From Escherichia coli (GTDB lineage: Bacteria > Pseudomonadota > Gammaproteobacteria > Enterobacterales > Enterobacteriaceae), in NCBI RefSeq assembly GCF_003334385.1, contig NZ_QOWN01000228.1: a DNA stretch of 217 nt; one strand, 5' to 3'. The notes below the pieces were generated by a model. That model ran no database searches, had not been told where the DNA came from, and was given only the letters and a program-made list of their open reading frames with translations. The number at the start of each line of letters is the position of its first letter. Positions within the stretch are counted from its first letter, which is position 1. Made by a program: the position numbers and the translations under genes. This document shows positions 1 to 217 of the stretch, piece after piece.

Positions 1-217
1 CCGCGTGTAGAACACCAGGCGGTGCTGGCTGTCGTAGTGGTGGGTCCGCTCGTCGTGCATCCGTATCACCCCTTCCGGGATGCGGTCCGTCTTCTCCGCC
101 AGCCTGCCGTATTCATCGTGGCGGTAGACATAGTGCGCATCTTCCGCGATGCGGTTATCCGGCCATGCCGTGAGCGTGCTGTCCGGGTGCAGTTCCGGGT
201 CCGGCAGCCGGTTTCCT
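1..217 (-). CDS. rhs: Rhs-family / YD-repeat protein, conserved core region (internal fragment, truncated at both window edges)
   Basis: Seen in sequence: minus-strand frame with codons at + 216..1 is open for all 72 codons and translates to [72 protein letters not shown]. The other two minus frames carry stops (TAA at + 155-157, TGA at + 68-70). About 85% of codons end in G/C (61/72). Established knowledge: YD-repeat-like motifs ([19 protein letters not shown]) and overall similarity to enterobacterial Rhs core sequence as recalled. Family-level symbol only; the paralogue (rhsA/B/C/D etc.) cannot be assigned from this fragment. Confidence 0.88.

Follow-up and report, generated by a model that had tools for sequence, protein, structure and literature searches.

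The shell of the Rhs toxin Tse5 is made up of 40 beta-hairpins with the consensus YDxxGRLV, in which the turn is formed by DxxGR; side chain and backbone of the Asp are hydrogen bonded to the backbones of the Gly and the Arg, and torsional freedom comes from the Gly (PMC10684867). The residue before the Asp, normally a Tyr, faces the cavity, and His, Arg, Trp and Phe often take the place of this Tyr with the hydrogen bonding pattern left undisturbed (PMC10684867). In the structures of the Salmonella bongori and Advenella proteins the YD motif marks the transition from strand to turn (bioRxiv 10.1101/2024.02.26.582050), and the structure of P. protegens RhsA is that of a cocoon around an autoproteolytically released toxin (PMC8765631). 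At the DNA level the Rhs core has been described as G+C rich (PMC2935791).

Here we consider a stretch of 217 nucleotides of Escherichia coli DNA (the window), in which a preliminary description made from the letters had flagged a YD-repeat unit encoded on the minus strand, with His-Asp in place of the canonical Tyr-Asp. The flagged segment is very probably one YD-repeat beta-hairpin from the hollow shell of an E. coli Rhs toxin associated with type VI secretion. A codon-by-codon check finds the motif exactly where it had been placed, with its 18-residue context at 85-138, and the features of the window are collected in Table 1.

Table 1. Features of the window, with residue numbers of the parent protein WP_151309019.1
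Feature	Position	Strand	Residues	Remarks
Internal fragment of Rhs core CDS	1..216	minus	922-993	WP_151309019.1, 1,408 aa, 'RHS element core protein' (ETEC1749)
Second YD unit	13..51	minus	977-989	His replaces Gly in turn DSQHR
Site of 6-bp in-frame deletion	34..42 (L001:9176-9184)	minus		One tandem CACTAC lost; THHYHYDSQ becomes THHYDSQ in the second unit
Enterobacterial Rhs insertion	52..84	minus	966-976	About 8-9 residues between the window's two units, relative to distant homologues
Predicted beta-hairpin of flagged unit	85..132	minus	950-965	Strand YVYRH 950-954, turn DEYGR 955-959, strand LAEKTD 960-965 (AlphaFold2 DSSP)
Flagged YD motif	100..132	minus	950-960	His954 118-120, Asp955 115-117, Gly958 106-108
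DNRI motif	148..159	minus	941-944	Just upstream of flagged unit, closing a loop of about 30 residues
GNRL tail of preceding unit YATDPAGNRL	205..216	minus	922-925	Unit begins beyond the window edge

The window and its parent protein

Megablast against complete E. coli genomes matched the window in 3,652 of 5,426, with a median of two copies per genome and up to six, and in all records listed the match lies under an Rhs label, either "RHS element core protein" or "RHS repeat-associated core domain-containing protein". Only three of the 3,658 matching records reach at least 99% identity, and 100% identity to the window was found in the chromosomes of three porcine E. coli, namely ETEC1749, ETEC4085 and rl0044. 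The GC content of the window (64.5%) fits the classical G+C-rich Rhs core.

Against the NCBIfam RHS_core equivalog (NF041261) the parent protein scores 2562.4 bits over residues 1-1255, the curated cutoff being 2000, and the 72-residue minus-frame translation of the window gives E=1.3e-43 by itself (149 bits, model positions 921-994), so the Rhs family call made in the preliminary description holds for the fragment as well as for the whole protein. Pfam places a DUF6531 domain in the N-terminal region (residues 49-126), makes 12 RHS_repeat matches, all between residues 329 and 907, and matches the RHS domain also; TIGR01643 (YD_repeat_2x) finds nine stretches, TIGR03696 (Rhs_assc_core) covers residues 1178-1255, and a single-unit profile recovers 22 units besides the flagged one. 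The end of the core lies outside the window and is formed by PIRYTDPLGL (PxxxxDPxGL, residues 1246-1255), followed by a tip of 153 aa. The DNA of the window belongs to an E. coli Rhs core of the standard enterobacterial type, annotated as such in RefSeq.

The reading frame is settled by the same material. Minus-strand frame 1 is open over the whole window, and plus-strand frame 0 is likewise free of stops across 216 bases, which is what would favour taking the motif for a chance match, or the real gene for one on the plus strand. That supposition is refuted by the RHS_core match of the minus frame, by the scan of the plus-frame peptide against NCBIfam (no family matched), by the codon signature and by shuffling, and its probability is to be put at practically nil. 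Third codon positions have a GC fraction (GC3) of 0.85 in the minus frame against 0.69 in the open plus frame, codon differences from K-12 rhsA number 20 synonymous and 12 nonsynonymous, and the pattern of synonymous substitution, like the RefSeq annotation, sides with the minus frame. The pattern aromatic-x-Y-x-x-D-x-x-G-R-L turned up in 0 of 20,000 composition-preserving shuffles of the 72-residue translation, and a stricter pattern, Y.[YFWH]D..G[RQNK][LVIM], in a fraction of 0.0001 of them. The minus frame is the coding frame of the window and the only frame with a coding signature. An RNA element was also considered and dropped, there being no Rfam family matched on either strand at E up to 1.

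The flagged unit in sequence comparisons

Generic repeat models do not give the flagged unit any significance, and so the per-repeat HMM check proposed in the preliminary description does not bear out the call. Pfam RHS_repeat applied to the 72-residue fragment aligns its residues 29-44, exactly the flagged segment, with 10.4 bits and E=0.93, and in a scan of residues 300-1408 it has no match over residues 950-965; TIGR01643 has no match on the window fragment. It is on this Pfam result, and on a score of −0.9 bits that the unit profile gives the flagged unit in the context of the full protein, that one could found the view that the segment is a linker or loop of the shell carrying a YD-like string, with no discrete YD repeat there. 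Both generic models span two regularly spaced units, and such spacing is missing in this region, which explains the misses; the generic models were set aside as a decisive test for this reason. The lesson for method is that in the distal third of the shell two-unit HMMs such as Pfam RHS_repeat and TIGR01643 overlook units that are genuine; a missing per-repeat match should therefore not be taken to mean that a repeat is absent.

A profile of one unit was built instead from the other repeats of the parent, with residues 940-970 masked so that the flagged unit was left out of its own model. Held out in this way the flagged unit scores about 6 bits, and when its stretch of 37 residues was shuffled 10,000 times 57-70 of the shuffles scored higher (p about 0.006-0.007). 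Its match is confined to the YxYDxxGRL half of the profile (positions 7-15 of the 18 in the model), and the 'DG.T' strand that usually comes upstream is missing. Most other units of the parent score 8-19 bits, and its distal units 6, 9.7, 16.5 and 2.5 bits. Set against the motif YDxxGRL(I/T), HDEYGRLA keeps the D, G, R and L and has H for Y and A for I/T. Judged on its sequence the flagged unit is real and clearly degenerate.

Whether such degeneracy is typical of the distal part of the core, as had been claimed, is a mixed matter. The Pfam calls do end at residue 907 in a shell that runs to about residue 1255, and to that extent the claim is borne out; but weak units are found mid-core as well (at 449, 516 and 852), and there is a strong distal unit at residues 999-1017 (16.5 bits). 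The name 'Unit 1' is right in the sense that this is the first complete unit within the window, although in the protein it is roughly the twentieth unit recognisable by sequence.

Conservation of the position is what, together with structure, decides the repeat status of the flagged unit. An earlier search for relatives with a 208-aa segment had yielded little beyond partial fragments from E. coli and Salmonella, which are too close, and a library of representatives at 50% identity was used in its place, giving an alignment of the query and 32 relatives of 32-80% identity. Among these 33 diverse Rhs proteins D955 and G958 are kept in all 32 sequences that cover the site, and position 954, that of the YD tyrosine, holds an aromatic residue or His in all 32 (Y in 24, H in six, W and F in one each). 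Y952 is present in 23 sequences; after Gly958 comes N in 20 and R in ten, and the next residue is L in 22. The consensus at the unit over 34 sequences reads YRYDxxGNLxEK. As far as the alignment goes, Rhs proteins keep a YD unit at this position down to about 35% identity, which speaks against a linker. The His-Asp reading of the preliminary description is upheld by the same column and by the K-12 proteins, RhsA having YRYD and RhsD YRHD at the orthologous site. It had been proposed that the repeat call should fall if neither a per-repeat HMM match nor an alignment to the YD-repeat region of known Rhs proteins were found; the flagged segment aligns with the YD unit of the solved Tse5 structure, and so the call stands.

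Neighbouring features of the window

The second unit of the window is the stronger of the two by the leave-one-out unit profile, with 9.7 bits (iE 6.5e-05), and the model gives it a strand at 977-982, a turn at 983-987 and a strand at 988-995; D983 and L988 are near-invariant in the alignment. It is this unit that carries the 6-bp deletion, called by comparison with strain 720632, which has the common allele, and with a paralogous Rhs gene that lies at the same locus, 7 kb upstream. The deletion is common to the three porcine E. coli genomes only and looks like replication slippage.

At the other edge of the window G922 and N923, in the tail of the preceding unit, are near-invariant or invariant, and the model has a turn at DPAGN. 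DNR(I/V/L) is near-invariant too, N942 and R943 being present in 32 of the 33 diverse Rhs proteins, and in conservation these two residues of DNRI equal Asp955 and Gly958 of the YD motif. The loop of about 30 residues that DNRI closes varies greatly in length among lineages, and in the model it is coil for the most part. The two units of the window are spaced 29-31 residues apart, in place of about 20, and the local pLDDT is at its lowest in between (67). The longer spacing brought about by the enterobacterial insertion is probably in part the cause of the failure of the two-unit HMMs.

Predicted structure and proposed role

AlphaFold2 modelling of residues 300-1260 with a 34-sequence alignment gave a mean pLDDT of 88 and a pTM of 0.81. 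In a Foldseek search with this model Tse5 (8cp6) was the best match (E=5.7e-71, TM 0.79), and after it came further Rhs cocoons of type VI secretion systems, namely Tse15, RhsA (7q97) and the cores from Advenella and Salmonella bongori, over a TM range of 0.73-0.79. By prediction, then, the parent core has the beta-spiral cocoon fold.

Within the model the flagged unit is a strand, a turn and a strand (E651-655, turn, E661-666 in model numbering, the offset being 299), and its register is the same as in the canonical units SRYRY-DDTGR-VTEQVN and VHYGY-DDKGR-LTGERQ. The supposition of a linker with a YD-like string draws something from the model also, as the segment comes after about 30 residues of coil and local pLDDT values are 67-80 (75-80 at the unit, above 90 for most of the shell). 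What stands against it is the predicted strand-turn-strand in a register identical to that of the canonical units, the invariance of D955 and G958, and the fact that the orthologous units of RhsA and Tse5 are canonical; with these and with the Pfam miss accounted for, a linker seems very unlikely.

As a YD-repeat hairpin the segment would function as its counterparts in Tse5 do. By that analogy the DEYGR turn would be held by hydrogen bonds from the Asp to the backbones of the Gly and Arg, with the Gly supplying flexibility, and His954, in place of Tyr, would point into the cavity. The hairpin would then be one structural element of the container in which the C-terminal toxin tip stays enclosed until it is delivered, and would have no separate function of its own.

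The His for Tyr exchange is an ordinary and documented variant (PMC10684867). His occupies the Tyr site in six of 32 lineages and is fixed in RhsD-type cores. One could imagine a His facing the cavity to be a titratable tuner of shell stability or of toxin release, or the ETEC-specific HY deletion to alter the shell; we found no evidence that points to either, and such readings seem scarcely credible. The finding as a whole matters little; what it confirms is that a YD unit slightly off the consensus is a normal hairpin of the shell.

Locus, toxin tip and downstream ORF

In strain 720632, which has the common allele, hcp and vgrG lie directly upstream of the Rhs gene. The ETEC1749 copy is preceded by another Rhs gene and an ISEc1 transposase and not directly by vgrG, and so the type VI secretion linkage of the exact source copy is indirect. 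In ETEC1749 (L001:1-6162) two Rhs genes stand in tandem, with about 91% identity between their cores over 2.9 kb, and the second of them is the source gene; between them are a small ORF, the ISEc1 transposase and 'dsORF-h1', and IS66 and ISAs1 are found downstream. Such an arrangement is typical of a rearrangement-prone Rhs locus.

The position of the gene behind another Rhs gene and a transposase is one reason to ask if the copy that holds the window is decaying or silent, in which case the unit would be a relic and not part of a working shell. The 6-bp deletion in the window allele, confined to three genomes, could be read in the same way, as could the poly-G frameshift that splits the downstream putative immunity ORF. 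The deletion keeps the reading frame, though, and the differences from paralogues are mostly synonymous. Nothing interrupts the parent ORF over its 1,408 aa, which take in the DUF6531 region at the N-terminus, every core motif and a tip that is complete. The poly-G difference, for its part, could be a homopolymer sequencing error. Decay of the copy is on balance unlikely, and a hairpin of a working shell remains the reading we prefer.

Strain 720632 has an intact copy of the putative immunity ORF that follows the Rhs gene (130 aa, L002:7449-7841); in ETEC1749 (L001:10443-10834) the ORF is split into 72 and 58 aa by a one-base difference, G7 against G8, in the poly-G tract near 10649-10655. The poly-G difference has one of two sources, a true frameshift or a sequencing error in the homopolymer.

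The toxin tip lies outside the window (residues 1256-1408; L001:10004-10462) and gives a weak Pfam match to YkuD, the L,D-transpeptidase catalytic domain (E=0.0017). It contains LHGGG...TMGCTRAQN, and we take the H...TMGCTR string to resemble the His/Cys active-site motif of L,D-transpeptidases. On its sequence the tip may be a Tlde1-like toxin directed at peptidoglycan. L,D-transpeptidase-like effectors of the type VI secretion system (Tlde1) are known (PMC9638812). Comparison of the tip with PDB sequences gave no significant match, Tlde1a included, and NCBIfam matched neither the tip nor the putative immunity protein.

Comparison with known Rhs systems

The nearest described protein for the flagged unit is RhsD of K-12 (b0497; RhsD/E subfamily), in which the 11-residue unit is identical down to its codons and the site thus reads YRHD. 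The core architecture is shared, and over the window region the two proteins have five amino-acid differences and the HY indel. RhsD differs from the parent in its overall sequence (72% identity) and in its C-terminal tip, and it keeps HYHYD in the neighbouring unit. In K-12 RhsA (b3593) the orthologous unit is the canonical YLYRYDRHGRLTEKTD, and the flanks are shared, DNRIA upstream and IPEGVIR downstream; RhsA differs in having Tyr (TAT) for His (CAC, read as gtg on the plus strand of the window) at the YD site and is 67% identical overall.

Among relatives of solved structure the best is Tse5 of Pseudomonas aeruginosa (PDB 8cp6), a pore-forming Rhs toxin of the type VI secretion system, which phmmer finds among PDB sequences with E=1.1e-116 and whose unit aligned to the flagged one is NRYRFDALGNLVE (YRFDALGNL). 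At about 32% identity to the parent it has Phe at the Tyr/His site and Asn instead of Arg after the Gly, is without the enterobacterial IPEGVIR-type insertion after the unit, and has a different toxin tip. The YD shells of the Tc toxin BC components and of teneurins (for example 4o9x and 6fb3) have the same YD-repeat beta-spiral cocoon fold (PMC8765631) but are far more distant, at 10-15% identity, with four shell turns or eukaryotic adhesion roles and with other plugs and delivery routes. The flagged unit is therefore already known, the exact unit being present in K-12 RhsD, and it makes no departure from known Rhs biology.
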